A DNA stretch of 64,000 nt from Planctomycetota bacterium (GCA_016209685.1 JACQVQ010000013.1:102341-166340); one strand, 5' to 3'; numbered from the stretch's first letter, positions 6,306 to 33,113 are shown. Notes: generated by a model not told the origin, from the letters alone. Numbers and translations are program-made.

Positions 6306-6319
6306 CTTACAACCCTTGC

Positions 6320-6454
6320 GGTTGCCCAAGACAATGGGGCGGGTGCAAGTTGAAAATCCTGAAAGTCCGCCTTTTGTTGGGAGGACGCCGTGTTCTGGGC
6401 GGGACCTGCCCTGAACCAGCACGGTTCAGGGCCTGCCCCTACAATGGACAAAGG
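6320..6454 (+). repeat. 135-bp direct repeat, copy 2 (provides 5' UTR and start codon of the rubrerythrin-like gene)
   Basis: See copy 1; the repeat ends ...CCCCTACAATGGACAAAGG, containing ATG 6444. Confidence 0.95.
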
Positions 6455-8313: not shown

Positions 8314-8324
8314 GGAGGATTATA

Positions 8325-8504
8325 TTGGAGAGTGTATTTACAGGCGTGTTTGAAAAGGTAGTAGATTGGTACATTGGGTATGTGGAAGAACTACCAGGCG
8401 CAAACACACAGGGCAAAACGCTTGAGGAGGTCCGTGAAAACCTTCGTGAAGCCGTAGAATTGATTTTGATGTCAAACTGGGAGTTGGCAGAGGAGGAGGC
8501 TTAA
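8325..8504 (+). CDS. HicB-like (UPF0150) antitoxin-fold small protein
   Basis: Not in ORF track (59 aa). SD TAAGGAGGA (8311-8319) + TTG 8325; ...YIGYVEELPGANTQGKTLEEVRENLREAVELIL resembles HicB N-terminal domain. No HicA seen nearby. Confidence 0.55.
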   Translation: MESVFTGVFEKVVDWYIGYVEELPGANTQGKTLEEVRENLREAVELILMSNWELAEEEA

Positions 8505-8510
8505 GATATC

Positions 8511-8852
8511 GTGGCCCAATTTGAAATCAAATACGGAGGAGAGTTGCCCAAACAGCCCGCCATAAGGCTGGCCTGTTTCTTCACCATAAAACACGGCGAA
8601 AAGATTTTCTCCTACGAGGTCTATCTAGGCAGGCTCTTATCGGCCACGTGGGGGAACGTCAAGGAGGAAGAGGCAAGGCTCTTTCTAATAGAACTGGGTT
8701 TAAAAGAGGCCAGGGAGCAACTTGCCAAGGGGAATGAGCAAAACGGCTACAAAATTAAACTTGCCCACTGTCCCCGTCCCAGACTCTCTAATGAAAGGCG
8801 GGGCGAACTCCTGGCCTTTATCAGGGGCGAACCAATTACCTTGAACCTGTAG
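8511..8852 (+). CDS. hypothetical protein
   Basis: 113-aa ORF (GTG start) 6 nt after the HicB-like gene; no family recognised; TAG stop lies inside a REP-like palindrome. Confidence 0.4.
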   Translation: MAQFEIKYGGELPKQPAIRLACFFTIKHGEKIFSYEVYLGRLLSATWGNVKEEEARLFLIELGLKEAREQLAKGNEQNGYKIKLAHCPRPRLSNERRGELLAFIRGEPITLNL

Positions 8853-8876
8853 GGGCGTATTGCAATACGCCCCTAC
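8849..8876. repeat. REP-like perfect palindrome GTAGGGGCGTATTGCAATACGCCCCTAC
   Basis: 28-nt palindrome between convergent genes; TAG 8850-8852 stops the + gene and CTA 8873-8875 is the uvrA stop on the - strand. Confidence 0.9.
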
Positions 8877-11776
8877 AAGGGCAAATGTTCCTTCAAGGCC
8901 CCCCCCGTATGAGACCTCTCACACCTGGCCACTGCTTCCGGCGTACCTGCCACTACCACCTCTCCCCCTTCCTCTCCGCCCTCTGGTCCAAGGTCTATGA
9001 CGTAGTCCGCCTGTTTGATGACGTCCAGGTGGTGTTCAATGATTATCACCGTATTGCCCATGTCCACTAGACGGTTGAGGATCTTCAGGAGGTTGTGTAT
9101 ATCTGCAAAGTGTAGACCCACGGTAGGCTCGTCCAGGATGTAGAGGGTCTTGCCCGTAGGGGTCTTGGCCAGTTCGGTAGAGAGCTTCACCCTCTGGGCC
9201 TCTCCCCCTGAGAGGGTGGTGCTGGGCTGGCCCAGGGTTATGTAGCCCAGACCCACCTCCTTTAGTGTCCTTAAGGTCCTCTCTAACCTGGGGATGTTCC
9301 TGAAAAGCTCATGGGCCTCCTCTATCCTCATGGACAGTGCCTCTGCCACGTCCTTTTCTCTATAGGTTATCTCCAGGGTCTCCCTGTTGTATCGCTTCCC
9401 CTTGCATTGGTCACAGGTGACGTAGGTATCGGGCAAGAAGTGCATCTCCAGTCGTTTTATGCCCTGTCCCTCACAACCCTCACAGCGTCCCCCCTTGACG
9501 TTAAAGCTGAAACGCCCTGGGCCATACCCCCTTACCCTGGCCTCCCTGGTCTGGGCGAAGGCCTGCCTTATATGAGTAAAGGCCCCCGTGTAGGTGGCGG
9601 GGTTAGACCTGGGTGTACGGCCAATGGGGGACTGGTCTATCTCTATCACCTTATCTATCTTCTCACTACCCAGGATGCGCTCACAGGCCCCTGGCTTTAC
9701 GTTGCTCCGGTAGATGGCCCTGGCCAGATACCTGTGCAAGGTCTGGTCTACCAGGGTACTCTTGCCTGAACCAGAGACGCCCGTCACGCAGCAGAAGACC
9801 CCCAGGGGTATCTTGACGTCCATTGACTTTAGGTTATTCTCTCTGGCCCCTTTTATCTCTATGCAATTCTTCCAGTCTACCTTCCGCCTCCTGGGAGGTA
9901 TCTCTATCTTTAGACTCCCCTTGAGATAGCTGGCAGTGAGGGAACTATCCCTTTTGAGTATCTCCTCTAAAGACCCTTGAGATACTACCCGCCCCCCTCT
10001 ATCACCGGCCCCGGGCCCGAGGTCCACTATATGGTCTGCGCTGCGGATAGTCTCCTCGTCATGCTCCACTACCAGTATGGTGTTCCCCAAGTCGCGCAGG
10101 GCCTTCAGGGTGGAAATGAGGCGATGCCCGTCCCTGGAGTGGAGGCCGATGGTAGGCTCGTCCAGGACGTAGCAGACCCCCACCAGGCCACTACCTACCT
10201 GAGAGGCCAGCCTTAGACGCTGGGCCTCTCCCCCTGAGAGGGTAGTACTTATCCTGTCCAGGGTAAGGTAGCCAAGCCCCAGTTCTATCATGAACCTCAA
10301 TCGCCCCGTAATCTCCTTTAGAATCTCCCTGGCGATGCGCCCCTTTTCCGCGCCAGAAAAGAGGGTCTGGAATCCATCTAAAGTAGCGAGGGCACGGAGG
10401 GCATCCAGCCCCACGACCTGTCCAATATTCTTACCTCCTATCTCTACTGCAAGAGCCTCGGGCCTGAGTCTGGTCCCCTTACAGCCCTCGCACGTCTGCA
10501 CACACATGTAGGACTCCAGTCTCCTTTTCACGGCCTCCCGTTCCGTCCTGGAATGCAGGTCCTTGAGGAGGGGCAGTGCCCCCTCAAAACCCCTACCGCC
10601 ATGGAGGAGGGTCTCCCTGGTCTCCCTGGACAATTTCCTGAAGGGGGTATCCATCTCCGTGGGGAAGGAATCCCTCAGTAACCTTTCGTAGTAACCATCC
10701 ATCTTACTGCCCCAATCTCTAAGGGCATGGATTGCCCCTTGCCTGAGGCTTAGGGATTTTTCAGGGACTATCAGGTCCGTGTCAAACTCCAGCCTGTAGC
10801 CCAACCCCTCGCAACTCGGGCATGCGCCGTAGGGGCTGTTAAAGGAGAAGAGTCTGGGCGCTGGTTCTTCAAGACCCGTACCGCACTGCCTGCAGGCGTA
10901 GCGTTGGCTGTAAAGGGTGTCCTGCCATGCGGAATGCGGAGTGCGGAGTGCGTTCCGAGTGCGGAATGGGGAGTGCGGATTGCGGAATTTAATTCCGCAT
11001 TCTGCATTCCGCACTCCGCATTCCTGAGAGACTATCATTATCCCCTCTCCCACCTCCAGGCAGGTCTGGATGGAGTTATAGAGCCTGGGCCAGTCGGGTG
11101 TGGCCCTGACGCCCTCTTTCATCACGAGCCTATCCACCATTACCTCTATGTTATGGGTCTTGTAACGGCTGAGTTTTATGGGCTGGGTAATATCCACCAG
11201 GAGGCCATCCACCCTGGCCCTGACGAAGCCCTCCTTCCTCACGGCCTCAAAAACCTCCTTGTGTTCCCCCTTCTTCCCCTTTATTACCGGGGCCAGGAGC
11301 ATCAGCCTGGTACCGGGGGCTATCTGCATCACCCTTTCCACTATCTCGTCCGCACTCTGTCGAGCAACTTCCTGACCGCATTGCGGGCAGTGGGGCGTAC
11401 CCAGTTTGGCAAAGAGCAGTCTGAGGTAGTCGTATGTCTCCGTGACCGTGGCCACGGTGGAGCGAGGGCTGGCAGAAGCGGTGCGCTGTTCAATGGCTAT
11501 GGTTGGGGGGACACCTTCAATGTGGTCTACGTCGGGTTTCTGCATCTGCTCCAGGAACTGGCGGGCATAGGAGGACAGACTTTCTATGTAACGCCTCTGC
11601 CCCTCGGCAAAGATGGTGTCAAAGGCCAGGGAGGACTTCCCGGAGCCGCTCACCCCCGTCACCACCACCAACGCATCCCTGGGGATGTCAATGTCAATAT
11701 TCTTGAGGTTATGCACCCTCGCACCCCTGATAGATATGTATTGGTCTCTTTCTTCCATGATTAAAACCCATATCAT
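8873..11776 (-). CDS. uvrA: excinuclease ABC subunit A (UvrA), carrying an in-frame palindromic insert
   Basis: 967-aa ORF; two ABC modules (GVSGSGKSS x2, LSGGEAQR x2), Zn-module cysteines (CPQCG, CRQCG...CPSCEGLG). ATG at 11758 (MEERDQ...) is an alternative start. Confidence 0.95.
10928..11033. repeat. 106-bp 'CGGAAT/GCGGAGT' word palindrome inside uvrA
   Basis: TGCGGAATGCGGAGTGCGGAGTGCG...GCGGATTGCGGAATTTAATTCCGCATTCTGCATTCCGCACTCCGCATTCC, centre near 10993; read in-frame as [33 protein letters not shown]. Confidence 0.85.
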
Positions 11777-12910: not shown

Positions 12911-12938
12911 GTAGGGGCGTTCAATTGAACGCCCCTAC
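12911..12938. repeat. REP-like palindrome GTAGGGGCGTTCAATTGAACGCCCCTAC
   Basis: Perfect 28-nt palindrome 27 nt downstream of the groEL stop. Confidence 0.85.
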
Positions 12939-12964: not shown

Positions 12965-14587
12965 CTACCTGACTGCCCCCTCTACCGCCTCGGCCTCTTC
13001 TTCCTCCTCCTTTAGCTCCGTGACCATTGTCTCGGTGGTCAGGAGGAGTCCGGCTACACTGGCGGCGCTTTGTAGGGCAACCCTGGTTACCTTGGTTGGA
13101 TCAACGATACCGGCCTTTATCATGTCTACATACTGAAGGGTATTGGCATCAAAACCTACGTTGGTGGCCTTTCCCTTTACGTCTTCTACCACCACGGCAC
13201 CATTCTCGCCGGTGTTGGTGGCAATCTGTCTCATGGGGGACTCCAGGGCTTTTATTATAATGTCCAGCCCAAGCTTCTCGTCACCTCTGAATTTCTTCCT
13301 GGCCTCTTGCAGGACAGGGATTGTCCTGATATAGGCCACGCCGCCCCCAGGGATGATGCCCTCTTCTACGGCGGCCCTGGTGGCATGGAGGGCGTCTTCT
13401 ACCCTGGCCTTCTTTTCGTTCATCTCTGCCTCTGTGGCCGCTCCTACCTTTATCACTGCCACGCCCCCCGTGAGTTTTGCCAGTCGCTCCTGGAGTTTCT
13501 CCTTGTCGTAGTCAGAGGTGGAGGCCTCCACCTGGTTCCTAATCTGGGTGATACGGGCCTGGATATCGGTCTTTTTGCCTTCTCCGCCCACCACGGTAGT
13601 CTTATCCTTATCTACGGTAACCTTCTTGGCATGGCCCAGGTCTGGGATGTCCAGGGTCTCTAGTTTCACCCCCAGGTCTTCCGTGACGGCCCTGCCATTA
13701 ATTAGGATAGCTATGTCTTCCAGCATGGCCTTCCTGCGGTCGCCGAAACCCGGGGCCTTGACCGCACAGCACTGGAGTACGCCACGGAGTTTATTCACTA
13801 CCATGGCGGCCAGGGCCTCTCCCTCCACGTCGTCTGCAATGATGAGAAGGGGCTTGCCGCTGGTGGAAATCTTCTCCAGCAATGGGATTAGTTCCTTCAG
13901 GGCCGAAATCTTTTTCTCGTGGATGAGGACGTAAGGGTCTTCAAATTCCACCAGCATCTTTTGAGGGTTAGTAACAAAATAGGGGGAGATGTATCCCTTA
14001 TCAAACTGCATCCCTTCTACCACGTCCAGTCGGGTCTCCACTCCCCTGGCATCCTCTACGGTGATAACACCGTCTTTGCCCACCTTTTCCATGGCATCGG
14101 CCAGGAGGGTGCCAATAAAAGAGTCATTATTGGCAGATATAGTGCCCACCTGGGCAATCTCGGCCCGTCCCTTCACGGGTTTGGAGAGTTTTTGTATCTC
14201 TTCTACTACTAATTCTACGGCCCGGTCTATGCCCCTCTTGAGGGCGATGGGGTTGGCGCCTGCCGTAATGGACTTGATCCCCTCTTTAAAAATGGCCTCG
14301 GCCAGGATGGTGGCAGTGGTAGTACCATCTCCTGCGGCATCACTGGTCTTAGAGGCCACCTCGTTTACCAGCTTGGCCCCCATGTTCTCAAAAGGGTCCT
14401 TAAGCTCCACCTCTTTGGCCACTGTGACACCGTCTTTAGTCACAGATGGGGAACCAAAGCCCTTTTCCAGGATGACGTTCCGGCCCGTCGGGCCCATGGT
14501 GACCCGGACGACGTCGGCTAGCTGTTTTATCCCCTGAAGGAGCTTTTTCCTGGCCTCTATATCGTAAAGCAATTGTTTGGCTGCCAC
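12965..14587 (-). CDS. groEL: chaperonin GroEL (copy downstream of groES)
   Basis: ORF track extends to 14617; SD GGGAGG + GTG at 14587 gives VAAKQLLYD..., 540 aa; GDGTTTAT motif; acidic tail ...[15 protein letters not shown] instead of a GGM repeat. Confidence 0.93.
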
Positions 14588-15062: not shown

Positions 15063-16691
15063 TTACATCATGGGTGGCCTGGGTCCGCCTGGGGCTAATT
15101 TTTCTTCTTTCTTCGGTATCTCGCTTATCACGCAATCCACCGTAAGGAGGGTACCGGCTATGCTCACGGCGTTCTGGAGGGCACAGCGGGCCACCTTCGT
15201 GGGGTCTATCACCCCGGTCTCCAGCATGTTGCAGAATTCTTGCCTCTCTGCGTCAAAACCGTAGGCCTGGTCTTTGGACTCCAGTATCCTCTTTACCACT
15301 ACAGAGCCTTCCATCCCGCTATTCTCAGCAATCTGGGCGGCGGGTACCGTGAGGGCCCTTCTTATGATGTCCACCCCTACTGCCTCATCCCCTTTAAGGC
15401 CAAGACCGTTTTCAAGTATGGCGGCCGTCCTGAGCAAGGCCACCCCGCCTCCTGGTAAGATGCCCTCTTCTATGGCCGCCCTGGTGGCGTGTAAGGCGTC
15501 CTCCATGAGGGCCTTTTTGGCCTTCATCTCCGTCTCCGTAGCGGCACCTACGTTTATCTGGGCCACCCCGCCGGCCAGCTTGGCCAATCTCTCCTGGAAT
15601 TTCTCCTTATCGTAGTCACTCGTGGTGGCCTCCATCTCGGTACGTATCTGTTTTATCCGCCCGACCACTGCATCATGGGAACCAGCCCCCTGGATTATCG
15701 TGGTATGCTCCGAGTCTACGGTCACCTTCTTGGCCCGGCCTAACTGGTTCAACTCCACCTCCTCCAGTTGCACGCCCAGGTCTTTGAAGAGGGCCTCTCC
15801 TCCGGTAAGGATAGCAATGTCCTCTAGCATGGCCTTCCTCCTGTCGCCGTAGCCGGGGGCCTTGACGGCACAGCAGGATATGGTCCCTTTGAGCTTATTC
15901 ACCACCAGGGTCGCAAGGGCCTCACCCTCCACGTCCTCAGATATGAGGAGGAGGGGCCTGCCGCTCCTGGCAATCTTCTCAAGTAAGGGTACTAAATTCT
16001 TTATGCCTGACAGTTTGTCCTCATAGACAAGTATGTAGGGGTTGTCCAGTTCTACCCGCATATCTTCGGCATTGGTTACAAAGTGGGGGGAGAGGTATCC
16101 TCTATCAAACTGCATCCCCTCCACCACCTCCACCTCCGTTACGGGGCGGCGGCCTTCTTCTACGGTAATAACCCCGTCTTTGCCCACCTTCTCCATGGCA
16201 TCAGCAATCATCTTTCCTATCTCAGGGTCATTGTTAGCAGAGATGGTGCCAACGCTGGCAATCTCCTGCTGGTCCTTTATCTTCTTACTCATCTCTTTAA
16301 GTCTTTCCACCACCTTCTCTACGGCCTTACGCATCCCACGGTTCAGGGCCATAGCGTCAGCCCCGGCGGCAATGTTCTTCAGCCCCTCCTTGAAGATAGC
16401 CTCGGCAAGGACTGTGGCGGTCGTGGTACCGTCCCCAGCTACATCACTAGTCTTAGAAGCCACCTCCCTAACCAGACGTGCGCCCATATTCTCATAGGGG
16501 TCCTTCAGTTCTATCTCTTCGGCTACGGTAACACCGTCCTTGGTTACTGTGGGGCTGCCGTAACCCTTATCCAGGATGGCATGTCTACCCCTGGGACCCA
16601 GGGTGCTCTTCACGGCACGTGCTAACTTGGCTACTCCCCTTAGTAATGCCTCTCTTGCTTCTTCCTTGAAGGCTAGCTGTTTGGCTGCCAT
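15063..16691 (-). CDS. groEL: chaperonin GroEL (copy upstream of groES)
   Basis: 542-aa [16 protein letters not shown]...; GDGTTTAT motif; tail ...[10 protein letters not shown]. Confidence 0.95.
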
Positions 16692-20884: not shown

Positions 20885-20980
20885 CGGAGGCATTTCTTTA
20901 GTAAGCCACACACAGGGATAACGGGTTTCCCTGTTTACTGTCTACTGTTTGCTGTCTACTGTCTAAAGGAGAGCGCTTTT

Positions 20981-22018
20981 ATGTCCAATGCCCAAGAAAA
21001 GGTGGTGACACCCGCCTCAGGCGGACTTCCGACAAGGGAACTGCTGGTTACCACCTCTCCTCATATTAGGGGTCCGGAGGATATACCCAGGGTGATGTGG
21101 ACGGTAGTGGGTGCCCTGTTACCTGCGGGCCTGGTGGGTGTGTATTTTTTTGGTTATTACGCCCTCTTCATCGTCATCTTGAGCGTGCTGGCCGCCGTCT
21201 TGACGGAGGCAGTCATACAAAAATATCTCCTCGGCCAGCCGGTTTCCGTTAAGGACGGCAGCGCCGTAATCACGGGGCTTCTCCTGGCCTATATACTACC
21301 CCCCGGTGTACCCTGGTACATACCAGTGGTAGGGGCCATATTTGCTATTGGCATAGTAAAACATGCCTTCGGCGGACTGGGTAACAACATCTGGAACCCA
21401 GCCCTGGCAGCCAGGGCCTTCCTCCAGGTGGCCTATCCTGCCCCCATCAACTCCGACTGGCGAATCATAAAAGAGAGCGGAGGCATCCTGTCAAATATTA
21501 CCGGTATGGATGCCATCACACAGGCCAGCCCCTTACTCAAGGAATTCGGCGGCAAGACCTATAGCTACATGGACCTCTTGATAGGAAGGGTCCCAGGCTG
21601 TATCGGGGAGACCTCTGCCATCGCCCTGATGCTGGGTGGGGCATATCTAATCTACAGGGGGTACGTAGATTGGCGGGTGCCTGTGGGATACATAGGGACC
21701 GTCTTTGTCCTGGCAAAGCTCCTGCCTGCGCGGATAGAGGCCCCCTGGGCCAATGACCCAATCTACCACGTGCTGGCAGGGGGGCTTATGCTGGGGGCCT
21801 TCTTCATGGCCACGGACATGGTCACCTCCCCCCTGACCAGGAGGGGACTCCTCATCTTCGGTATAGGCTGTGGGGTGCTAACTACCCTGATAAGATTTTA
21901 TGCGGCCTATCCTGAGGGGGTTTGTTACTCCATCCTCCTCATGAACACGGCTACTCCCCTCATTGACAGATTCACTCAACCAACACTACTGGGGTCCGCC
22001 TCAGGCGGAAAGAAATAA
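20981..22018 (+). CDS. rnfD: Rnf complex subunit D (NqrB/RnfD family)
   Basis: 345-aa polytopic membrane ORF directly after rnfC; SPHIRGPE...MWTVVGALLPA N-terminus typical of RnfD. The last 8 codons (GSASGGKK) overlap a CCGCC hairpin repeat. Confidence 0.85.
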   Translation: MSNAQEKVVTPASGGLPTRELLVTTSPHIRGPEDIPRVMWTVVGALLPAGLVGVYFFGYYALFIVILSVLAAVLTEAVIQKYLLGQPVSVKDGSAVITGLLLAYILPPGVPWYIPVVGAIFAIGIVKHAFGGLGNNIWNPALAARAFLQVAYPAPINSDWRIIKESGGILSNITGMDAITQASPLLKEFGGKTYSYMDLLIGRVPGCIGETSAIALMLGGAYLIYRGYVDWRVPVGYIGTVFVLAKLLPARIEAPWANDPIYHVLAGGLMLGAFFMATDMVTSPLTRRGLLIFGIGCGVLTTLIRFYAAYPEGVCYSILLMNTATPLIDRFTQPTLLGSASGGKK

Positions 22019-22019
22019 A

Positions 22020-22649
22020 ATGGGAAAGAAACTACGGTACACGGTAGTACTCGGTATCATCTCCATAATTACGGCGGTAGGCGTGGGGGTCACCTATGTA
22101 ACCACGAAGGAGAAGATAAGACAGAAAGAAGAGGCCAGGCGGATGGAGGCCCTACTAACCGTCCTGCCAGGGCTGGAGGGACAGCCCCAGGAGGTTACGC
22201 CCCCCGGGGCAGCCCCCGAGGAGAAGGTCTACAAGGGGTTAGACAAAGACCAGAAGGTCATAGGTTATGCCGCCCTTGGCCAGGCCCAGGGCTACTCCAG
22301 CACCATAAAGACTATGGTGGGCCTGTCTCCTGACATGCAAAAAGTCCTGGCCATCAAGGTCCTGGCCCAGGGAGAGACCCCTGGCCTTGGCACCAGGGTC
22401 ATGGAGATAGCGACCACCAAGACCCTCTGGAAACTCCTTATGGGCGGCGGGGCTTCCCCTGCCGCAGCCGAACCATTGACCCCCTGGTTCCAGGAACAGT
22501 TCAAAGACAAGGCCCTCAATCAGCTAACGGTGGTCAGGGAGTCCGACCCCACGAAGATTCAGGCCATCACCGGGGCTACTATCAGTACCAAGGCAGTGGT
22601 GGCCTCCGTGGAAAATGGGGTGAAGAAGATAAAGGCTACAGTAAAGTAG
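22020..22649 (+). CDS. rnfG: Rnf complex subunit G
   Basis: ORF track starts 21963 inside rnfD; ATG 22020 lies 1 nt after the rnfD TAA. N-terminal TM helix and FMN-attachment-type motif ITGATISTKAV. Confidence 0.85.
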   Translation: MGKKLRYTVVLGIISIITAVGVGVTYVTTKEKIRQKEEARRMEALLTVLPGLEGQPQEVTPPGAAPEEKVYKGLDKDQKVIGYAALGQAQGYSSTIKTMVGLSPDMQKVLAIKVLAQGETPGLGTRVMEIATTKTLWKLLMGGGASPAAAEPLTPWFQEQFKDKALNQLTVVRESDPTKIQAITGATISTKAVVASVENGVKKIKATVK

Positions 22650-22673
22650 GGGCATGTTGCAACGTGCCCCTAC
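22646..22673. repeat. REP-like palindrome GTAGGGGCATGTTGCAACGTGCCCCTAC
   Basis: The rnfG TAG stop (22647-22649) lies within the GTAG end. Confidence 0.85.
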
Positions 22674-22720
22674 CAGGGGTTAGCAGTCTTTTTCCCTACC
22701 CCCTACTCCCTATCCCCTGG

Positions 22721-22780
22721 TTCTGCAACTGTTCCAGGAAGGCCACACGGGTGCGTATCCGGCTATGGGCGATAGGGGTG
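22721..22780 (-). pseudogene. remnant A of the 3' end of the dehydratase-like gene (23720..25687)
   Basis: 60 nt align to 23733-23795 with a 3-nt deletion and 5 mismatches. Minus-strand translation FTPIAHSRIRTRVAFLEQLQN vs the real C-terminus YTPSAHGQIRTRVEAFLEQLQNVNR. Confidence 0.75.
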
Positions 22781-22853
22781 AAGGGAGGTGGTTTGTTTTA
22801 CCCATTTTGTGCCGTTAAACAGGGGGCATTGAAAATTGAAAGGAGTAGACGCC

Positions 22854-23096
22854 ATGCCAATGGTGAAGTGTAAGCGGTGCGGTGGAAGTGGGGTTTCCAC
22901 CGACCAAAATCCAACAAGACCAGGTGTTTACAATTGGTGTAAAGGATGCGAGGGGGATGGTGCAGTTAATGTGCCCGACCCTAATAATTCGTGTAAAAGA
23001 TGCGGTGGAAGTGGGGTTTCCACTGACCAAAATCCAACAAGACCAGGTGTTTACAATTGGTGTGCTGGATGTGCTGGGTCGGGGTATGCAAGGTAA
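22854..23096 (+). CDS. 80-aa cysteine-rich protein with four DnaJ-type CxxCxGxG zinc-finger motifs (tandem duplication)
   Basis: SD AAGGAG + ATG 22854 (ORF track 22836). Motifs CKRCGGSG, CKGCEGDG, CKRCGGSG, CAGCAGSG. Internal 72-nt units 22869-22940 and 22992-23063 differ at 4 positions. Confidence 0.6.
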   Translation: MPMVKCKRCGGSGVSTDQNPTRPGVYNWCKGCEGDGAVNVPDPNNSCKRCGGSGVSTDQNPTRPGVYNWCAGCAGSGYAR

Positions 23097-23167
23097 TGGG
23101 GTGCTAATCGGCCGGTGGCGTTGATGTTAGGATGCTGGTTTGGGTCTTTAATGCCTGCCTTCTGTTA

Positions 23168-23203
23168 TTCTGCAACTGTTCCAGAAATGCCTCTACACGG
23201 GTG
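23168..23203 (-). pseudogene. remnant B of the 3' end of the dehydratase-like gene
   Basis: 36 nt match 23733-23768 at 34/36 (encodes VEAFLEQLQN in the host-gene frame); overlaps the stop of the NTase gene. Confidence 0.65.
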
Positions 23204-23579
23204 GCAAGAGACTCCAAGACGGGCTGGAATAAACCCAGACGACTTCACGCCTAATCCTTTCGTAAGATTGTCCCTGCCGTGCAAGGCCCTGCCATTCCTC
23301 CTCTGTGTAGACCAGTACGTCTGCCGGGACAGGTAACTCGGTTATATCCCATTCCGAGGCCCGCCGCATGAAGGGGTGTTGTGAGTCCTTAACAATTATG
23401 ATTAGGTCAAGGTCGCTTCCTACGCCCCAGTCCCCCCGGGCATAGGAGCCAAAATAACCGATACTTAGTACATCTTTTCGGGTCTTCACGGCCTTGTCAA
23501 CCCACTGGCCCACTGCCCGTTTGACCGTCTGTGCATCAGGCCATCTGAGAACGGACGAACTCAATAATCTCACGGGCAT
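23193..23579 (-). CDS. MNT-type nucleotidyltransferase-domain protein (orphan, no HEPN partner seen)
   Basis: 128-aa ORF; GYFGSYARGDWGVGSDLDLIIIV is the GS-x10-DxD pol-beta NTase motif. Confidence 0.75.
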   Translation of the reverse strand: MPVRLLSSSVLRWPDAQTVKRAVGQWVDKAVKTRKDVLSIGYFGSYARGDWGVGSDLDLIIIVKDSQHPFMRRASEWDITELPVPADVLVYTEEEWQGLARQGQSYERIRREVVWVYSSPSWSLLPPV

Positions 23580-23640
23580 AATTTTTGGACTTTAGTCCGC
23601 CTGAGGCGGATGGACTAAAATCTTTCAGTCTATTGTCTAT

Positions 23641-23668
23641 AGTAGGGGCGTATTGCGATACGCCCCTA
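23641..23668. repeat. REP-like palindrome GTAGGGGCGTATTGCGATACGCCCCTAC
   Basis: Differs from the 8849 copy by one loop base. Confidence 0.85.
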
Positions 23669-23719
23669 CTACTGTCTACTGTTTGCTGTCTACTGTCTTA
23701 CGCAGGCTAAAGCCTGCGG

Positions 23720-25687
23720 CTACCTGTTTACGTTCTGCAACTGTTCCAGGAAGGCCTCTACACGGGTGCGTATCTGGCCGTGGGCGCTGGGGGTGTAATC
23801 ACAGGTGAGGTGTAGCAGGGGGATGTTCCTCTTCTCAAATTCCTTCTTAAAGAGGGGGTAGTCGTACAGAGAATGGTCACAGAACTTCAGGGTATGGTAG
23901 ATGGCCCCATGTATGGAGCGTTTTTCTATTATGGACAGGATTCTGTTTATCCTGTCAAAGACGTTGGCCATGCGTGAGCAGGGTGACTTCCCAAGGTACC
24001 GGCCTGCCAGGGCCAAAAAGGGGTCGTCCTGTACCTCTACCAGGGCTTCGTAGAATCTGGAACCACTGCAGAGGTCGTCCGCCACTACCCTGGCCCCCGC
24101 CTCTTCTATAGTCTTTATTATCTCTTCGTTCTCCAGGATGCCCCCCCATATAAGGAGTCTTGGCAGTGCCTTGGTCTCTTTTGTGCAAGGGCGACCCACC
24201 GGGTCGCCCCTACCATCTTTCGTCAGACCCGCCGGGTCGTCACTACAATCTTTCATCAGGAGGGTAATATAATCGTGGAACTTCTCAGGGACGGCATTGA
24301 TTCCCCTCTTCATGAGGGAGAAGACCTCGTATCCCGAGTGGTTCAGGTATCCATTCCATTGTTTCTGTAAGAAAAGTTTGGCCTTCCCCCTGACCTTATT
24401 ATAGAGTGCGATGCTCTTGTGGAGCTCTTCCTGGGTAATCTTGCGGTTGCAGTATTTCTCTAACCTCTCCTTGAAGTTCTTTATCAGGAGGCTGAAGTAG
24501 TTTATGGCGGCCGCATCGTTAGTCTTGGGCAGGTCCAGGATGTAATTGAACTTCTTGTCTCCGTCCAGACGCTTCCAGGCGTCGTACAGCCTGCGCATCC
24601 CGTCACAGGAGTTCATGAACACTATCCCTTCCAGCCCTTCCAGACTGCCCGAGAGTTTCTCCTCCATAGCGGCCTTTATGTAAGGGCAGATATTGGTGCA
24701 GAGGTGCTCTTCGGCCAGTCCTTCGGCCTTCTTTGCCCCGGTTATCCTGACGGGATGGAACCCCGCCGCCCGGATGACCTCTATCGGGGTATAGGTGCAC
24801 AGGTAACCCATCCTGGGGAGATTGCTCTCCTCCAAGGAGGCGTCGGCCTTAATCTCTTCCACGGGCCTCTCTTCAGCGGTGGATTTCACCTGGATTGAGG
24901 GGCTGTTTCTTTTGCCGGCACTTTCCAGCCCAATAAGGGCGGCCCCTACTGCCCCGACAATCTGAGGGTCCGGGGACATCCTGAGCCTCGTACTCAACAG
25001 CCTTTCCAGTTCCTTGACCATGCCCACGTTCTTGGCCACCCCTCCGCTCATTACCACCTGTTCCTCTACGCCCACACGGCGGGTCTGGGCGGCAATCCTC
25101 TTGGCTATTGCTATGTGGAGGGCGCGGCAGATGTCCTCCCTCTTGTGGTCTGCCCCTATGAGGGAGACCACCTCTGACTCTGCGAAGACCGTGCAGAGAC
25201 TGCTTATGGAGAGCTTATCGCCTCCCTGGAGAGAGAGTGCCCCCATCTCCTCCAGCTCTATCTCAAGGGTCCTGGCCATCACCTCCAGGAACCGACCGGT
25301 GCCGGCGGCGCACTTGTCGTTCATTACAAAATCCATAACGTTGCCACTCTGGTCAACCTTTATGACCTTGCTGTCCTGACCGCCTATGTCTATTACGGTC
25401 CTTACCTTGGGGAAGAAGTAATGTGCCCCTTTGGCATGACAGGTTATCTCGGTTACTACCTCCTGGGCGAAGGGTACCCTGATGCGGCCGTAACCAGTGG
25501 CCACCACGTAGTCAATGTCCTTCTCTGAAAGCCTGGCGACCTCCAGTACCTTCTTAAAGGCCTTGTCAGCGGCCTTCTTACTACTGGCCCCCGTAGCTAT
25601 TACCTCAGAGGCCACAATCTCCCTCTTATCGTTCAGCAACACTACGTCTGTTGATAAAGACCCAATATCAATGCCAAGACTCAACAT
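23720..25687 (-). CDS. fusion of BcrAD/BadFG/HgdC-type activase ATPase with HgdB/BcrC-like dehydratase-component domain
   Basis: 655-aa ORF; N-terminal GIDIGSLSTD and NDKCAAGTGRFLE (activase hallmarks); C-terminal half resembles 2-hydroxyacyl-CoA dehydratase D-component. Contains a REP-like insert at 24188-24213. Confidence 0.8.
   Translation of the reverse strand: MLSLGIDIGSLSTDVVLLNDKREIVASEVIATGASSKKAADKAFKKVLEVARLSEKDIDYVVATGYGRIRVPFAQEVVTEITCHAKGAHYFFPKVRTVIDIGGQDSKVIKVDQSGNVMDFVMNDKCAAGTGRFLEVMARTLEIELEEMGALSLQGGDKLSISSLCTVFAESEVVSLIGADHKREDICRALHIAIAKRIAAQTRRVGVEEQVVMSGGVAKNVGMVKELERLLSTRLRMSPDPQIVGAVGAALIGLESAGKRNSPSIQVKSTAEERPVEEIKADASLEESNLPRMGYLCTYTPIEVIRAAGFHPVRITGAKKAEGLAEEHLCTNICPYIKAAMEEKLSGSLEGLEGIVFMNSCDGMRRLYDAWKRLDGDKKFNYILDLPKTNDAAAINYFSLLIKNFKERLEKYCNRKITQEELHKSIALYNKVRGKAKLFLQKQWNGYLNHSGYEVFSLMKRGINAVPEKFHDYITLLMKDCSDDPAGLTKDGRGDPVGRPCTKETKALPRLLIWGGILENEEIIKTIEEAGARVVADDLCSGSRFYEALVEVQDDPFLALAGRYLGKSPCSRMANVFDRINRILSIIEKRSIHGAIYHTLKFCDHSLYDYPLFKKEFEKRNIPLLHLTCDYTPSAHGQIRTRVEAFLEQLQNVNR
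24188..24213. repeat. REP-like palindrome AGGGCGACCCACCGGGTCGCCCCTAC inside the dehydratase-like CDS
   Basis: Read in-frame on the - strand as ...DGRGDPVGRPC... Confidence 0.7.
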
Positions 25688-28669: not shown

Positions 28670-28786
28670 CTTCCGTCCTCCCTAATCTTTTGCAAGTGTA
28701 GCGTGCGACCTCGTGTCGCACGATTCTTAACTGCCCATTTAGAACGTGTGAGACAAGCTCACACGCTACTTCCGTCCTCCCTAATC
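28670..28786. repeat. REPIN-like doublet (28698-28769) bracketed by an 18-bp direct duplication containing the tal SD
   Basis: CTTCCGTCCTCCCTAATC at 28670-28687 and 28769-28786. Between them: GTAGCGTGCGAC-CTC-GTGTCGCACG...CGTGTGAG-ACAAG-CTCACACGCTAC. Confidence 0.85.
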
Positions 28787-29786
28787 ATTTACAGAGTTTA
28801 AAGACCAGTGTCTCCAGGAGGAGCCTGGTGTCCGTGCTATTGGTCTTACTATGTATATCCGTTTCCAACAGAAATTGGTAGTCCCTTTCTAATTCCACCT
28901 CCGAAAAGAGTTGTGTCTGATTCACTAACTCTTCCAGGAAACGAGAGTAACGGATGTTCAACTCCCGGGCTACGGTCTCTCTGTCTTTACCGCTGGCCAA
29001 GATACGCTTGGCCTGCAGGAGCCTTTTCATCTGCCAGGCCATGGGGGGAATGACCTTTTGGGCCTCCTCCCCGGACTTCATGAGTGCCATCAACTGGTGG
29101 AGTACCTTCAGGGCAAGGGCTGTATCCCTCCTGGCCACTGCCCCGGTGAAATCAAAGACCTTCTGCTGACGGTCGTAGCCCACGAGTTCTTCCACGTCGC
29201 TTACTTCTATCCTCGTGCGGCTGCCCAGGTAGAGGGCAAGCTTCTCTATATGGCCGTCCAGCAACAAGAGATTATCACCCACATTTTCTTGTAAAATGCG
29301 GGAGGCGTCAAGGCTAATCTGCTTACCATAGTGCCGCACCCTCTCTAGAATCCAGGGCGTGAGTTCATTCCCCTTTAATCTCCTGCAATCAACACTGCCT
29401 CCTTTTTTCTTTATCTTATCGTATGCCCCACCCTTGGTGTCCACGTCTTTACAGACCAGTACCAGGACGCAATCCGTTGGCGGAGAAGATATATACCGCT
29501 CCCACACCCCACTGCTTTCCTTAAACAATCCATCGGCGTTATATACTAGTACTAATTTTCTACTGCCGCTTGCAAAGAGGGAGGGCGTCCTCACCTCCTC
29601 CATCACTGTAGACAGAGAGGTCATTTCACCATCCGTCTCCACCAGGCCGGTGTCATCACCCTCCAGTGTGCGGGATTTGATAAGGGAAATGGCCTCCTTT
29701 ACGAAGAACCCCTCCTCCCCGTGTATAAGGTACAGGGACAGGAGTTTCTCCCTCTGGAAATGGTTTTTAAAGTGCAGAAAGTCCAT
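28785..29786 (-). CDS. holA: DNA polymerase III delta subunit
   Basis: 333-aa ORF; ...LYLIHGEEGFF... N-terminus and the leuS-proximal position typical of holA. Confidence 0.7.
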   Translation of the reverse strand: MDFLHFKNHFQREKLLSLYLIHGEEGFFVKEAISLIKSRTLEGDDTGLVETDGEMTSLSTVMEEVRTPSLFASGSRKLVLVYNADGLFKESSGVWERYISSPPTDCVLVLVCKDVDTKGGAYDKIKKKGGSVDCRRLKGNELTPWILERVRHYGKQISLDASRILQENVGDNLLLLDGHIEKLALYLGSRTRIEVSDVEELVGYDRQQKVFDFTGAVARRDTALALKVLHQLMALMKSGEEAQKVIPPMAWQMKRLLQAKRILASGKDRETVARELNIRYSRFLEELVNQTQLFSEVELERDYQFLLETDIHSKTNSTDTRLLLETLVFKLCK

Positions 29787-29800
29787 GTCTTATTTGTATA

Positions 29801-29922
29801 TTGAATCCTCTGAAAAACCCGACGGACCTGTCCCGCCATAGGCGGATTTTCAACATTCTGAGGGAGCGAAGCGACCGAAGAATCTCTTAAAAGCCAGATT
29901 CTTCGCTTCGCTCAGAATGACA
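29801..29922. mobile_element. MITE-like element B (right end missing)
   Basis: Left end TTGAATCCTCTGAAAAACCC, internal CATTCTGAGGGAGCGAAGCGACCGAAGAATC / GATTCTTCGCTTCGCTCAGAATGAC. No right TIR before the leuS-end remnant. Confidence 0.6.
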
Positions 29923-29936
29923 GGTAGCAGGTTCAT

Positions 29937-30057
29937 CTACCTCACCACAATATTCATCAACTTCTTCGGCACCAGGATTATATTCACCACCTTCTTCCCG
30001 TCCAGGAATTTCTTTACGCCCTCTTCTTCCAGCACCTTGGCCTTGAGTTTTTCTTCC
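29937..30057 (-). pseudogene. diverged duplicate of the last ~40 codons of leuS
   Basis: Aligns to 30570-30691. Translation EKLKAKVLEEEGVKKFLDGKKVVNIILVPKKLMNIVVR* (own TAG) vs real ...EEVKARALEDENVKKFLDGKKVVNIILVPRKLVNIVVR*; 48 central nt are identical. Confidence 0.8.
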
Positions 30058-30078
30058 TTTAGACTTCTTTATTTATAA

Positions 30079-30231
30079 TTTGAGACCTCTGAAAAACCCA
30101 GCTCATTGTCCCGCCTGAGGCAGAAAGAATCTCTAATCCGAAATGTCACCCTGAGCGAAGCGAAGGGGCTAGATTCTTCGCTTCGCTCAGAATGACACAT
30201 TGCGATGCCGTGGCTTTTTCAGAAGTCTCTA
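30079..30231. mobile_element. MITE-like element C (complete)
   Basis: TIRs TTTGAGACCTCTGAAAAACC (left) and GGCTTTTTCAGAAGTCTCT (right, 17/19 complementary), internal GTCACCCTGAGCGAAGCGAAGGGG / GATTCTTCGCTTCGCTCAGAATGAC hairpin. Confidence 0.75.
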
Positions 30232-30240
30232 TCTCTTCTT

Positions 30241-30558
30241 TTAGACATAGATTAGATTCTGCTCAATATCTTCAGCGATGTGCTCATACCTTGGGTTTTT
30301 GTAACTACTCTTTAAACAATCAAAAGTTGCCACATCTACCTTTACTTTATTTAGTACCTCCTCCAGATAGTATGCAAGGTCTACAAAATCGAGCCCTAAA
30401 GGTTTTTTGAGTTCTACGAGGATGTCTACATCGCTTCCCTTTCGTTGCAAGCCTTTTGCGAAAGAATCAAAAATGGCAATCTTTTCTACCCCGTATCTTT
30501 CTCTTAAATACGGAAGCTCTCTTCTTAGGATATCAACAATTTTCTCTTTTGTAAGCAT
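30241..30558 (-). CDS. MNT-type nucleotidyltransferase (orphan, no HEPN partner seen)
   Basis: 105-aa ORF starting 11 nt after the leuS stop, with SD AAGGA..GAGG; FDSFAKGLQRKGSDVDILV is the NTase GS...DxD motif. Confidence 0.8.
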   Translation of the reverse strand: MLTKEKIVDILRRELPYLRERYGVEKIAIFDSFAKGLQRKGSDVDILVELKKPLGLDFVDLAYYLEEVLNKVKVDVATFDCLKSSYKNPRYEHIAEDIEQNLIYV

Positions 30559-30569
30559 CCTCAGTCCTT

Positions 30570-33113
30570 TTACCTCACCACAATATTTACCAGCTTCCTG
30601 GGTACCAGGATTATATTCACCACCTTCTTCCCGTCCAGGAATTTCTTTACGTTCTCGTCCTCTAATGCCCTGGCCTTAACCTCCTCCTCCTGGAGGTCTA
30701 CCGGGACCATCAGGTGTCCCCTGACCTTGCCGTTTACCTGGACTACCAACTCTATTTCTCCTACCTTAATGGCCTCAGGGTCGTAGGTGGGACGTGGTTG
30801 TTCAAAGAGACTGGGCTTGTTACCTAAGACCTGCCAGAGTTCCTCGCAGATGTGTGGCACAAAGGGGGCCAGGAGTAACGTAATAGACTCCAGGGAGTGG
30901 CGGAGGACCTGTAGAGAGAGGATGTTCTCTGTCAGACTTGCCTCACTCACTGACGCTCTGGGTCTAAATTTCTCCACCTGGTTAAAGAGTTCCATTACGG
31001 AAGCAATGGCGGTGTTAAAATGCCAGGAGGTCTCTATGTCCTCAGAGACCTTTTTTATGGTAAGGTGGGTGGCCCTGTAAAGATGCCTGGCCTCCTCAGG
31101 GAGTTGAGAGGTTTTAGTCTTTGTTCCTGGCAGGTTACTGAGTTTTGCTGCCTCCTCTGCTACCTTTTGCCAGAGGCGGTTGAGGAAACGGGAACTGCCG
31201 ACTACTGCCCTGTCGCTCCACTCGGCGTCCTTCTCTGGAGGCCCGATGAAGAGGATATAAAGCCTGAGGGTATCTGCCCCGTACTTTTTGATAATATCCT
31301 CCGGGCTTACCACATTGCCCCTGGACTTGGACATCTTGGCGCCGTCCTTGATTATCATCCCCTGGGTGAAGAGGTTCTTAATGGGCTCCTGGAATTTCAC
31401 GCAGCCCATATCGCAAAGCACCTTTGTTATGAACCTGCAATAGAGGAGGTGCAGTATGGCATGTTCCACTCCACCTATATATTGGTCCACCGGGAGCCAT
31501 CGGTTCACAAGCTCGCTATCAAAGGGTCTATTAGAATCCCTGGGCGATAGATACCTGAGATAGTACCACCCCGAGTCCACAAAGGTGTCCATAGTATCCA
31601 CCTCCCTCCGTGCCTCCCCCTGACATCTTGGACAAGGCGTGCGGAAGAACTCCTCCACCTCTGCCAGTGGACTCTGACTGGAGTGTCTCAGTTTCTTAAC
31701 AGGGGGCAGGAGTACAGGCAGGGCCTCTTCGGGTACTGGGACTATGCCACAGGCGTTGCAATATATTATGGGTATGGGCGCCCCCCAGTACCTCTGGCGG
31801 GATATGAGCCAATCCCTCAGGCGGTAATTTGTGGAGGGGACGCCCAGTTTTTTCTCTTTTAGATATTCAATTATCTTTGGGATTGCCTCCCGATTAGGTA
31901 GACCGCTAAATGGCCCGGAGTCTACCTGGGTGCCATCTCCAGTATAGGCCTCCTTCATAGCCTCGGGTCTCAGTGTCTCCCCTTCGGGCTGAATCACCAC
32001 CCTGACGGGTAGGTTGTAGGCCCTGGCGAACTCAAAGTCCCTCTGGTCATGGGCAGGTACGGCCATCACCGCCCCTGTGCCGTATTCCATCAGGGCATAG
32101 TTGGCTATCCAGAGGGGTACCTCCTCGTTAGTTACAGGGTTTATGACATGGAGACCCATGAAGACCCCCTCCTTGGGTGCGCCTGCGGCGGAGCGCTGTA
32201 TGAGGTTCTCGTTCCTGGCCTTTTCTACGAAGGAGAGTATATCGTCCCTCCTGGGATTATTCTCCACCAGTAACTTAATGATAGGATGCTCAGGGGCGAG
32301 GACCATAAAGGTAACGCCGAAGAGGGTATCTGGTCTGGTGGTGAAGCAGGTCAGCGTAGGGGCAGGTTTCAAACCTGCCCCCTCAGATGGGAGTGGCCCT
32401 GCCACTCTAAAATCTATCCTGGCCCCTTCACTCTTACCAATCCAGTTCCTCTGCATCACCTTCACCCTCTCTGGCCATCCCTTCAGGAGTTCCAGGTCGT
32501 CCAGTAGCCTCTGGGCATAATCGGTAATCTTGAAGAACCACTGTTCTAAATCCTTTTGCTTGACGGGGGTATCACACCGCTCGCAGAGGCCGTCTATTAC
32601 CTGTTCATTGGCCAGGACGGTAGAACAGGAGGGGCACCAGTTTACCGCCGCCTTTTTCTTATAGGCCAGCCCTCTCTCATAGAGTTGGAGGAATATCCAC
32701 TGGGTCCACTTGTAATACTCAGGGTCGCAGGCGGCCACCTCCCGGTCCCAGTCGTAACCTGTACCCCAGTGGAGGAGCTGGTTCTTCATGGCCGCTATGT
32801 TTCTATAGGTAAGTTCGGCAGGGTGACAACCCTCCTTTATGGCGGCATTCTCTGCCGGCAGCCCAAAGGCGTCCCACCCCATCGGGGTAAGGACGTTGTA
32901 GCCCTTCATGAGCTTATAGCGTACCACCACGTCCCCGAGGATATAGTTCCTTGCGTGCCCCACGTGGAGTGTCCCCGAAGGATAAGGGAACATCACCAGG
33001 CAGTAGAACTTCTCTTTGGAAGAGTCCTCCTCTATTTTAAAGAGCCCCCGGCGGTTCCAGTACTCCTGCCATTTAGGCTCAATCTCCCAGAACTTGTACT
33101 TATTATCTTCCAA
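30570..33113 (-). CDS. leuS: leucyl-tRNA synthetase
   Basis: 847-aa ORF; HIGH-type motif LHVGHARNY, KMSKS motif GAKMSKSRGN, TTRPDT editing-domain motif. REP-like 29-nt element in-frame at 32356-32384. Confidence 0.97.
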   Translation of the reverse strand: MEDNKYKFWEIEPKWQEYWNRRGLFKIEEDSSKEKFYCLVMFPYPSGTLHVGHARNYILGDVVVRYKLMKGYNVLTPMGWDAFGLPAENAAIKEGCHPAELTYRNIAAMKNQLLHWGTGYDWDREVAACDPEYYKWTQWIFLQLYERGLAYKKKAAVNWCPSCSTVLANEQVIDGLCERCDTPVKQKDLEQWFFKITDYAQRLLDDLELLKGWPERVKVMQRNWIGKSEGARIDFRVAGPLPSEGAGLKPAPTLTCFTTRPDTLFGVTFMVLAPEHPIIKLLVENNPRRDDILSFVEKARNENLIQRSAAGAPKEGVFMGLHVINPVTNEEVPLWIANYALMEYGTGAVMAVPAHDQRDFEFARAYNLPVRVVIQPEGETLRPEAMKEAYTGDGTQVDSGPFSGLPNREAIPKIIEYLKEKKLGVPSTNYRLRDWLISRQRYWGAPIPIIYCNACGIVPVPEEALPVLLPPVKKLRHSSQSPLAEVEEFFRTPCPRCQGEARREVDTMDTFVDSGWYYLRYLSPRDSNRPFDSELVNRWLPVDQYIGGVEHAILHLLYCRFITKVLCDMGCVKFQEPIKNLFTQGMIIKDGAKMSKSRGNVVSPEDIIKKYGADTLRLYILFIGPPEKDAEWSDRAVVGSSRFLNRLWQKVAEEAAKLSNLPGTKTKTSQLPEEARHLYRATHLTIKKVSEDIETSWHFNTAIASVMELFNQVEKFRPRASVSEASLTENILSLQVLRHSLESITLLLAPFVPHICEELWQVLGNKPSLFEQPRPTYDPEAIKVGEIELVVQVNGKVRGHLMVPVDLQEEEVKARALEDENVKKFLDGKKVVNIILVPRKLVNIVVR
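32356..32384. repeat. REP-like element inside leuS
   Basis: GTAGGGGCAGGTTTCAAACCTGCCCCCTC, read on the - strand as ...EGAGLKPAPT... just N-terminal of the conserved TTRPDT motif. Confidence 0.8.

Follow-up and report, generated by a model that had tools for sequence, protein, structure and literature searches.

Restriction–modification (RM) systems can enter genomes by insertion with long target duplication (Nobusato et al. 2000, Gene 259:99; Furuta, Abe and Kobayashi 2010, PMC2853133; PMC3874152). The repeats flanking such RM insertions are of the order of 100 bp and often lie over a start or stop codon; the mechanism is unknown, and a cycle of insertion, amplification and release has been hypothesised (PMC2853133). 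The spread of toxin–antitoxin (TA) and RM genes without a transposase or integrase has been an open question since this type of insertion was described in 2000. It is the closest described phenomenon to the locus considered here, which lies between leuS and holA in a stretch of 64,000 nucleotides (hereafter the window) from a Planctomycetota bacterium (GCA_016209685.1 JACQVQ010000013.1:102341-166340). The window belongs to a Brocadiales metagenome-assembled genome (MAG), named Candidatus Tripitaka californicus by one source. In it, the gene for a minimal nucleotidyltransferase (MNT) of the MntA antitoxin type is bounded by the working end of leuS (tail A) and by a second, displaced leuS end (tail B). 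This arrangement is probably one allele of a fast-turning-over stack of addictive cassettes that is moved by homologous recombination in the end of leuS.

Other systems share parts of this architecture. The minimal mobile elements of Neisseria (Saunders and Snyder 2002, cited in PMC1797815) are alternative small cassettes, often RM systems, between two conserved genes. The leuS–holA locus likewise accommodates alternative cassettes at one site between conserved genes, without mobility genes. Exchange of the Neisseria elements was reportedly ascribed by their discoverers to homologous recombination in the flanks, and the elements are said not to have been described with duplicated, displaced ends of a flanking gene or with stacked cassettes; in the present case, by contrast, a single flank supplies both homology arms. 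Integrase islands occupy the 3′ ends of tRNA, tmRNA and protein genes, where tandem accretion with integrase-less, cis-mobilisable elements also occurs (for example PMC3146451 and PMC5704250). As in these islands, the element at leuS restores the 3′ end of its target and leaves a displaced partial copy on the far side, and successive elements give arrays split by gene-end repeats. Islands, however, depend on a tyrosine or serine recombinase and a single fixed crossover site in one attachment (att) sequence, whereas the leuS–holA arrays and their counterparts display many breakpoints, variable repeats and several unrelated targets, with no recombinase in the arrays or, by one tyrosine-recombinase query, in the window. 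In integrons, compact cassettes are stacked by a fixed entry point, each with its own recombination sequence, and TA cassettes are common cargo. The likeness is one of outline: stacking, TA cargo and an MNT start codon 11 nt past the upstream stop. Unlike integron arrays, the locus has no intI, attI or attC, and its 'recombination sequence' is a copy of the coding end of an essential gene. The leuS–holA arrays fail the tests that define integrons and integrase att-site accretion.

Results and discussion

The two leuS ends

Tail B begins 633 nt downstream of tail A, is 122 nt long and matches it at 100 of 122 positions (82%; blastn E 6e-29, tblastn E 4.5e-17). The longest identical run is exactly 48 nt (30651..30604 and 30018..29971), and the chance of such a run with 22 randomly placed mismatches is 7.5e-5. 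A first-pass annotation of the window had described the leuS stop, the short spacer with its Shine-Dalgarno sequence, the 105-codon MNT gene, a complete miniature inverted-repeat transposable element (MITE) and a leuS-end copy that has a TAG of its own, with 48 central nucleotides common to the two ends. Its coordinates hold (Table 1), as does the count; the similarity of the ends survives alignment statistics, and the MITE (MITE1) is indeed complete (148 nt, 89% complementarity between its terminal inverted repeats). Two features had been overlooked, namely remnants of a HepT/HEPN gene on both sides of MITE1, and a second MITE copy (MITE2) between tail B and holA.

The arrangement of the tails is genuine sequence and not an accident of assembly, since two more MAG assemblies (L001 and L002) show it with 100% and 99.9% identity, and it is collinear in an independent European Nucleotide Archive (ENA) assembly, L169. 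A chimera of two strains might be suspected because metagenome assemblies were used throughout and the short-read contigs L004 and L005 break at the MITE; a simple local tandem duplication, unrelated to the cassette, would also place two leuS ends side by side. Either explanation is very improbable. Identical junctions are present in four assemblies from different projects, the L009 array lies on a 423-kb contig, and the junction between the HepT end and the 5′ boundary of the tail offers no shared k-mer to mislead an assembler. Moreover, no relative has the duplicate without an insert, an arrangement that the first-pass annotation had regarded as the mark of a simple duplication. In the GenBank MAG contig of L170, a run of N (about 3995-4106) falls exactly where the second tail and MITE2 are expected; assemblers seem to struggle with this repeat-rich interval.

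Divergence between paired tails is codon-structured. In the window, the proportion of synonymous differences (pS) is 0.44 and that of nonsynonymous differences (pN) 0.11. The corresponding values are 0.64 and 0.06 in a more distant relative, L009, where 15 of 19 differences occupy third codon positions, and 0.47 and 0.02 in the distant lineage L092, where seven of eight differences are synonymous and one is conservative. pS is far above pN in every tail pair, and indels are absent. For a dead copy that decays next to a live one, pN/pS would be expected to approach about 0.5 or more. Because the divergence is structured in this way, the two ends in the window appear to derive from two once-functional leuS alleles, making the tails probable fossils of functional alleles.

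This pattern bears on the possibility that both tails were copied in situ from the resident leuS end when the cassette inserted, as in the insertions of Nobusato and Furuta, and that the downstream copy then decayed. Such duplication is documented for RM systems, with repeats of about 100 bp that in many cases extend across a start or stop codon (PMC2853133, PMC3874152), and an example is seen in L166, where a 46/47-identical repeat surrounds an MNT–HEPN pair and the downstream copy carries the native end and terminator. Near-identical repeats of this kind are found only in L166, the tails of the window being 82% identical. Furthermore, the flanks of the window tails differ by about 30%, whereas the surrounding genes differ from those of relatives by about 5%; the differences are mostly synonymous and free of indels, unlike neutral decay; and in L092, where seven of eight are synonymous, the proximal end matches the allele of another lineage. 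In-situ duplication is thus quite unlikely as the source of the window allele, although it probably explains founding events.

Comparison across genomes indicates that the phylogeny of the tails disagrees with that of the gene. The leuS gene of L087 is 72-86% identical to that of the window in the four 50-nt intervals before the last and 98% identical in the last 50 nt. For L086, the values are mostly 91-100% in the other 50-nt intervals (two being 74% and 82%) and 86% in the last. The short distal tail of L008 (T3) is followed by the sequence that lies after the single-copy leuS stop in L087. In L092, T2 and its flank match the empty-site relative L096, while T1, the working end, is like the L090 allele, as are the bases that follow its stop. 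The window tails are themselves mosaic. Upstream of the identical core, tail A matches close relatives, and downstream of it carries a 'P-type' allele also found in L006, L170 and L087; tail B has a diverged 5′ flank in common with L169 T3 and a 'Q-type' 3′ flank also found in L007, L169 T1 and L169 T2. Given the codon structure, the incongruent ancestry of the tails and the native flank on the distal copy in relatives, the working end is best understood as a replacement and the distal copy as the displaced older end. In this respect the first-pass annotation, which had proposed a conservatively diverged, displaced end beyond the insert and a replacement end at leuS, is borne out.

An allelic series between leuS and holA

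Close relatives in which leuS and holA are about 93-95% identical provide a natural allelic series, which comprises the empty site, alleles with one or two cassettes, a live toxin, and a dead toxin beside a decaying antitoxin. The site is empty in L086, where leuS is followed by a 90-nt MITE remnant and holA, and which supplies the insert-free relative called for at the outset. L006 has an MNT–HepT pair without a second tail. L169 reads tail, DhiA/DhiT-like pair, tail, MNT–HepT, tail, MITE2, holA, and L170 and L171 are deletion derivatives with the HepT::MITE junction of the window. Among more distant relatives, L009 reads tail, ParE pair, tail, MNT–HepT, tail and then an EVE-domain gene, and L008 reads tail, ParE pair, tail, DUF433/DUF5615 (PIN) pair, short tail and then a methyltransferase–HNH (RM) pair. 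Different cassettes without mobility genes thus occupy one leuS–holA site across related genomes, as in minimal mobile elements; in Brocadiales stacks they are mostly type II or type VII TA pairs.

In a control set of 156 leuS loci from many phyla, a downstream copy of the gene's own end was found only in L008, L009 and the distant lineage L092 (8268-9137; LeuRS 55% identical). In the last of these, a MazE/PemK (MazEF) pair lies between leuS and a copy of its last 63 nt plus about 20 nt past the stop, and L096 (about 8200-8420) is the matching empty site. Repeats longer than 30 bp therefore flank inserts and are single-copy at related empty sites, both in the close relatives (122-128 nt; L086) and in the distant lineage (L092/L096). 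The L090 locus holds a repeat of another kind: an 89-nt internal leuS fragment (1469-1557) recurs with 97.8% identity at 3176-3264, after a gene of 421 aa and GDSL/SGNH type. This fragment stops short of the stop codon and does not fit the pattern of tail copies or the model proposed below.

The leuS–holA cassettes resemble RM insertions with long target duplication in being small addictive modules without a transposase or integrase. The likeness extends to the repeats, which are long and variable (tens to hundreds of bp), single-copy at the related empty site, and often span the start or stop codon of a neighbour that is left intact; both the variable length and the spanning of a neighbour's start or stop codon are observed here. 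The systems differ in that the cargo here is of TA type, an RM pair being present only at the distal end of the L008 array, that cassettes lie two or three deep at one site, and that the repeats are diverged, codon-structured and mosaic ends of different leuS alleles.

Destruction of the HepT toxin

The MNT protein has the minimal nucleotidyltransferase fold, matching Pfam NTP_transf_2 with E 5.9e-12 and 46 bits (cutoff 21), and it matches NCBIfam MntA_antitoxin with E 2.4e-7 and 30.6 bits, under the curated cutoff of 60. In MntA/HepT (MNT/HEPN) type VII TA systems, the toxin is neutralised through adenylylation by the antitoxin. In these systems MNT lies upstream of and overlaps HepT, an organisation that is shared here, as are the GSx10DxD and Rx4H motifs in the relatives. 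In contrast to these systems, the window has a destroyed toxin and a mutated antitoxin motif, and its scores lie under NCBIfam equivalog cutoffs. Its catalytic motif reads FDSFAKGLQRKGSDVD, that is DSx10DxD in place of GSx10DxD (GAT for GGT), while the catalytic G is intact (FGSFAKG...) in the MNT proteins of L006, L169, L170, L171 and L009. The adjoining HepT (HEPN RNase) gene with its Rx4H motif has been reduced to its first 19 nt and its last 23 nt, which flank MITE1. HepT is whole in L169, L006 and L009 (Pfam HepT-like E 4.3e-27, with RDKVIH seen in the translation), and alignment with relatives that have an intact pair shows MITE1 in place of about 300 nt of HepT interior. The description of the MNT gene as an orphan lacking a HEPN partner consequently has to be revised: by origin it is not an orphan, a HepT toxin gene having been present once and then replaced by the MITE. 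The 11-nt leader before MNT is also found in L006, L169 and L170.

The order of events can be read from L170 and L171, which share the HepT::MITE junction of the window yet retain the GS motif, so that toxin loss probably came first and damage to the antitoxin second. MITE1 has the features of its class, being short, non-coding and multi-copy, with 19-nt terminal arms that are 89% complementary over an element of 148 nt. A 25-nt core of the family occurs four times in the 64-kb window (3774, 29897, 30172 and 38287; none expected), and full copies lie near 3740 and 38347. None of the three complete copies displays a clear target-site duplication; MITE1 is tied to the deletion of about 300 nt, and its original target is gone. 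Since relatives carry the cassette without MITE1, this element arrived later than the cassette, whereas MITE2, of which a remnant also occurs at the empty site of L086, is ancestral spacer material between leuS and holA.

Recombination in the tails

Among nine tails of close relatives, 62 of 105 pairs of informative sites fail the four-gamete test, and the minimum number of recombination events (Rm) is at least 6 in 99 nt. Together with the similar use of unrelated targets, this does not match a single fixed crossover position in one att sequence. Tail copies measure about 33, 63, 87, 105, 122 and 132 nt; the leuS stop is part of every one (the L087 repeat includes the holA start), and for the same type of ParE cassette the tail boundaries differ between L008 and L009. 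The 3′ flank GTGCCGAAGAAGTTGATGAAT follows the MNT cassette in the window and precedes it in L169, an exchange of position that excision at one point and re-insertion elsewhere, or gene conversion, would give. The sequence of the identical core differs among genomes and is common to the copies within one genome.

The first-pass annotation had attributed the displaced end to site-specific integration at a gene 3′ end by an integrase-type enzyme. Such a reading can be extended to an integrase-less element of the cis-mobilisable kind, with an att site that mimics the leuS end and a recombinase, encoded elsewhere, that inserts it and stacks it by tandem accretion. It would account for the logic of displaced and replacement ends, for arrays of 3′-end repeats like those formed by accretion at att sites, for the shared 3′ boundary and the core identical within each genome, and for leuS being the target in two very distant lineages. 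It is nevertheless unlikely. Tails range from about 33 to 132 nt, with different boundaries for one cassette type in L008 and L009; Rm is at least 6 in 99 nt; 3′ flanks swap position relative to the cassette; the core differs between genomes; and unrelated targets behave alike (the end of a 655-aa gene at 25687..23720, the start of holA, and a gene in L166). No tyrosine recombinase was found in the arrays or, by one query, in the window, nor were phage or plasmid relatives. Of the original interpretation, therefore, the displaced and replacement ends stand, and the site-specific integrase and the orphan status of MNT do not.

That the insert encodes no integrase, as had been stated at first, agrees with its open reading frame (ORF) lists and with a tblastn search of the 64-kb window, in which one tyrosine-recombinase query returned no Xer-like recombinase. 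ORF lists likewise revealed no integrase-sized ORF, transposase or other mobile-element gene inside any array; the tyrosine recombinase encoded near the L092 tail is found at the empty site as well, as a conserved neighbour. Searches for a vehicle gave no viral-contig match to the MNT protein or to a degenerate pattern of the tail core, and no plasmid or phage match to MNT–HepT DNA. No Rfam family, tRNA or tmRNA was found in the intervals 22-34 kb and 20-36 kb, which excludes an attachment site of tRNA type there.

A precise motif at cassette ends was also considered. The genes for the ParE-family toxin (83 aa; L008 5133-5384, L009 4963-5214) and for HepT both end in ...AAAGARGTCTA (KEV), the ends lying at about 5370-5400 in L008, about 5200-5215 and 5995-6010 in L009, and 30059-30075 in the window. 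This motif is similar to the MITE terminal repeat CAGAGGTCTC and reverse-complementary to GTAGACCTC in leuS; in L008 it forms a perfect 9-bp inverted repeat across the junction between toxin gene and tail. It was dropped as a candidate, since the ends of DhiT, HicA, PIN-like and MazF genes are without it and boundary distances vary.

A model of cassette turnover

Homologous recombination is preferred to a site-specific integrase because of the many breakpoints, the variable copy lengths, the unrelated targets and the failure to find a recombinase. Homologous recombination of the RecA type, acting within the conserved ~100 nt at the end of leuS, would let cassettes enter, leave and replace one another. 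A cassette lying between a pair of tails could loop out as a circle bearing one tail, and one crossover might then place this circle in the leuS end of a different genome. The same product would result, by another route, from a linear fragment through either two crossovers or a template switch. In either case the expected order is hybrid working end, cassette, hybrid displaced end, and repetition of the process would stack displaced ends, with gene conversion keeping the central core identical. The mosaic tails and their incongruent phylogeny fit such exchange, and DNA uptake and RecA dependence are the inferred components. When a site first acquires a duplicated tail, insertion with long target duplication is presumably responsible, and the 46/47-identical repeat of L166 suggests that founding events are true long target duplications.

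In the window, an MntA/HepT pair starting 11 nt past a leuS stop would have come to sit at the working leuS end, pushing the earlier end downstream, where it still lies next to its native spacer (MITE2) and holA. The MITE would then have taken the place of the HepT interior, and the antitoxin, by now useless, could afterwards have gained the G-to-D change in its catalytic GS motif. Addiction may explain why TA and RM cargo persists: a stable toxin would punish loss of a live pair and thereby penalise excision through the repeats. In the window, with the toxin destroyed, this brake on loss would be gone.

Several points weigh against turnover by homologous recombination. All tails share their 3′ boundary (the leuS stop) and vary at the 5′ boundary, which homologous recombination alone does not predict. 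Several tails start 0-4 nt past the stop of the preceding toxin gene; the full range is -10 to +165 nt, and because of this spread, compaction by deletional trimming is tentatively favoured over a precise cut. The MNT genes of close relatives are 95-97% identical, which equals background divergence, so that, instead of being a recent gain, the cassette may date back to the ancestor of this group and have been lost in L086. A recombinase acting in trans could be encoded elsewhere in the genome, the search having consisted of one tyrosine-recombinase query in 64 kb. RecA dependence, the circular intermediate and the transfer route are deduced indirectly, the statistics of the tail pairs rest on short and non-independent sequences, and all the genomes are metagenome assemblies. 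Finally, the identical core could be held by selection, given its promoter-like match TGGACG-16-TATAAT.

This last point can be developed into an explanation of its own, in which the tail is kept as a functional promoter, the core driving MNT from tail A and holA from tail B, such that only insertions that duplicate the core preserve holA expression. A sigma-70-like match, with ten of 12 positions and a perfect -10, is present in both cores, TATAAT occurs in all tails of L009, L169, L087 and L006, and a promoter would account for a conserved core with free flanks. The two matches in the region, however, lie near the 1.3 expected by chance and represent one sequence counted twice; in L008 the tails have in common a 50-nt identical core that contains no TATAAT, and L086, with its empty site, also lacks it. 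The match is to a consensus only, in a phylum whose promoter rules are not established. As the reason for the tails, a promoter seems doubtful; it is a weak side idea that would complement recombination rather than compete with it.

Table 1. Features of the leuS–holA region and of the second instance, with positions counted from the first letter of the window.
Feature	Position	Strand	Basis
holA (DNA polymerase III delta subunit), conserved right-hand neighbour	28785..29786	-	Pfam DNA_pol3_delta, DNA_pol3_delta_C
MITE2, same family as MITE1, without left terminal repeat, between tail B and holA	about 29922..29800	-	sequence, repeats, alignment
Tail B, displaced leuS end, open frame, own TAG	30058..29937	-	repeat search, blastn, tblastn
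HepT gene end remnant, last 23 nt including stop (AAATTATAAATAAAGAAGTCTAA)	30081..30059	-	alignment with intact HepT
MITE1, complete, 148 nt (terminal inverted repeat GAGACYTCTG...CAGAGGTCTC)	30229..30082	-	inverted repeat and family copies
HepT/HEPN gene start remnant, first 19 nt (ATGTCTAAAAGAAGAGATA), overlaps MNT stop	30248..30230	-	alignment with intact HepT of L169, L006
MNT, MntA-like nucleotidyltransferase antitoxin gene, 105 aa	30558..30241	-	Pfam NTP_transf_2
Spacer from leuS stop to MNT start, 11 nt (AAGGACTGAGG), Shine-Dalgarno-like AGGACTGAGG	30559..30569	-	sequence
leuS stop, TAA	30570-30572	-	
Core of 48 nt, identical in tails A and B	30604..30651 and 29971..30018	-	sequence comparison
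Sigma-70-like match TGGACG-16-TATAAT in the cores of tails A and B	30637..30610 and 30004..29977	-	consensus match only
Tail A, working leuS end, segment repeated downstream	30570..30691	-	repeat search, alignments
leuS (leucyl-tRNA synthetase, 847 aa)	33113..30570	-	ORF; Pfam tRNA-synt_1_2, tRNA-synt_1, Anticodon_1
End of 655-aa BcrAD_BadFG/HGD-D-type gene (25687..23720), second instance, in three copies	about 23795..23720, 23207..23168, 22780..22720	-	blastn E 2e-9, 1.3e-10; Pfam
Second MNT gene, 128 aa	23579..23193	-	
DnaJ-CXXCXGXG ORF, 86 aa	22836..23096	+	

The same architecture at unrelated sequences

A second instance within the window involves the BcrAD_BadFG/HGD-D-type gene, the three end copies of which bound a second MNT gene and the DnaJ-CXXCXGXG ORF. 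The stop codon of this MNT gene falls inside the second gene-end copy, and no HEPN partner was found for it (window 22720-25687). All three differences between copies one and two are synonymous, and the distal copy ends in ...AGGGGATAG, like the single-copy orthologue in L167, which ends in ...AGGGGATAA. The DnaJ-CXXCXGXG ORF contains an internal, tandem-like duplication of 81 nt (22868-22948 and 22991-23071, 91% identical) that gives two zinc-finger repeats.

Gene starts are used as well as gene ends, since a HicB/HicA pair in L087 (about 1491-2040) is flanked on both sides by a copy of the first 36 nt of holA. The differences inside the repeat proper are all synonymous (TTC/TTT, CTG/CTT), and the copies diverge at the last codon (AGG vs GTG). 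L166 (9942-11023) carries an MNT–HEPN pair from another family, whose insertion point in a 214-aa gene lies four codons short of the gene's end. The duplication measures 47 nt, 46 of them identical; the native last codons and a terminator hairpin remain with the distal copy, and the case looks like a recent, true long target duplication.

It is tempting to generalise from these cases, tentatively and with the balance still tipped the other way, to an integron-like system independent of any recombinase. In it, small TA and RM modules would carry along a duplicate of a core gene's conserved end or start to serve as a portable homology arm; they would loop out as circles and re-insert at that core gene in other genomes, leaving arrays in which every displaced gene end is the fossil of an earlier host allele. 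Brocadiales would commonly have such a system, and it would occur in other phyla too. What is new at the leuS–holA locus, compared with the described phenomenon, is the TA cargo, the stacking and the nature of the repeats as diverged ends of different functional alleles. In the literature searched, no description of TA cassettes stacked between displaced gene ends was found, an absence that is no proof of novelty, and nothing on Tripitaka californicus turned up.

The flanking repeats hold a readable history in their synonymous divergence, their mosaic breakpoints and the native flank on the distal copy. The locus thereby argues for repeats as portable homology arms and not as the footprints of an enzyme, and makes the question of how such modules spread a testable one. 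For annotation, it implies that 'orphan' antitoxins and short, open 'gene-end' ORFs beside essential genes can be relics of cassette turnover, and that the last ~100 nt of a housekeeping gene can differ in ancestry from the remainder.

Other repeats in the window

A direct repeat of 136 nt (5829-5964 and 6319-6454; 98.5% identical) surrounds a 354-nt insert without a convincing ORF, and covers the upstream region and first 11 nt (ATGGACAAAGG) of a rubrerythrin-like gene. Within this insert, positions 6268-6305 (38 nt) are a 100% identical copy of 21999-22036, which is the ribosome-binding site plus first codons of the RnfG-like ORF at 21963..22649. Short GC-rich palindromic hairpins (GTAGGGGCGTATCGCAATACGCCCCTAC and variants), distinct from the MITE family, are intergenic, for example at 23640-23698, 20936-20964, 8848-8877, 12911-12938 and 22660-22690. 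Self-comparison of the window also detects long paralogous blocks with 66-72% nucleotide identity (13323-14501 vs 15427-16605, and 8937-11719 vs 51720-54406), which are presumably paralogous genes.

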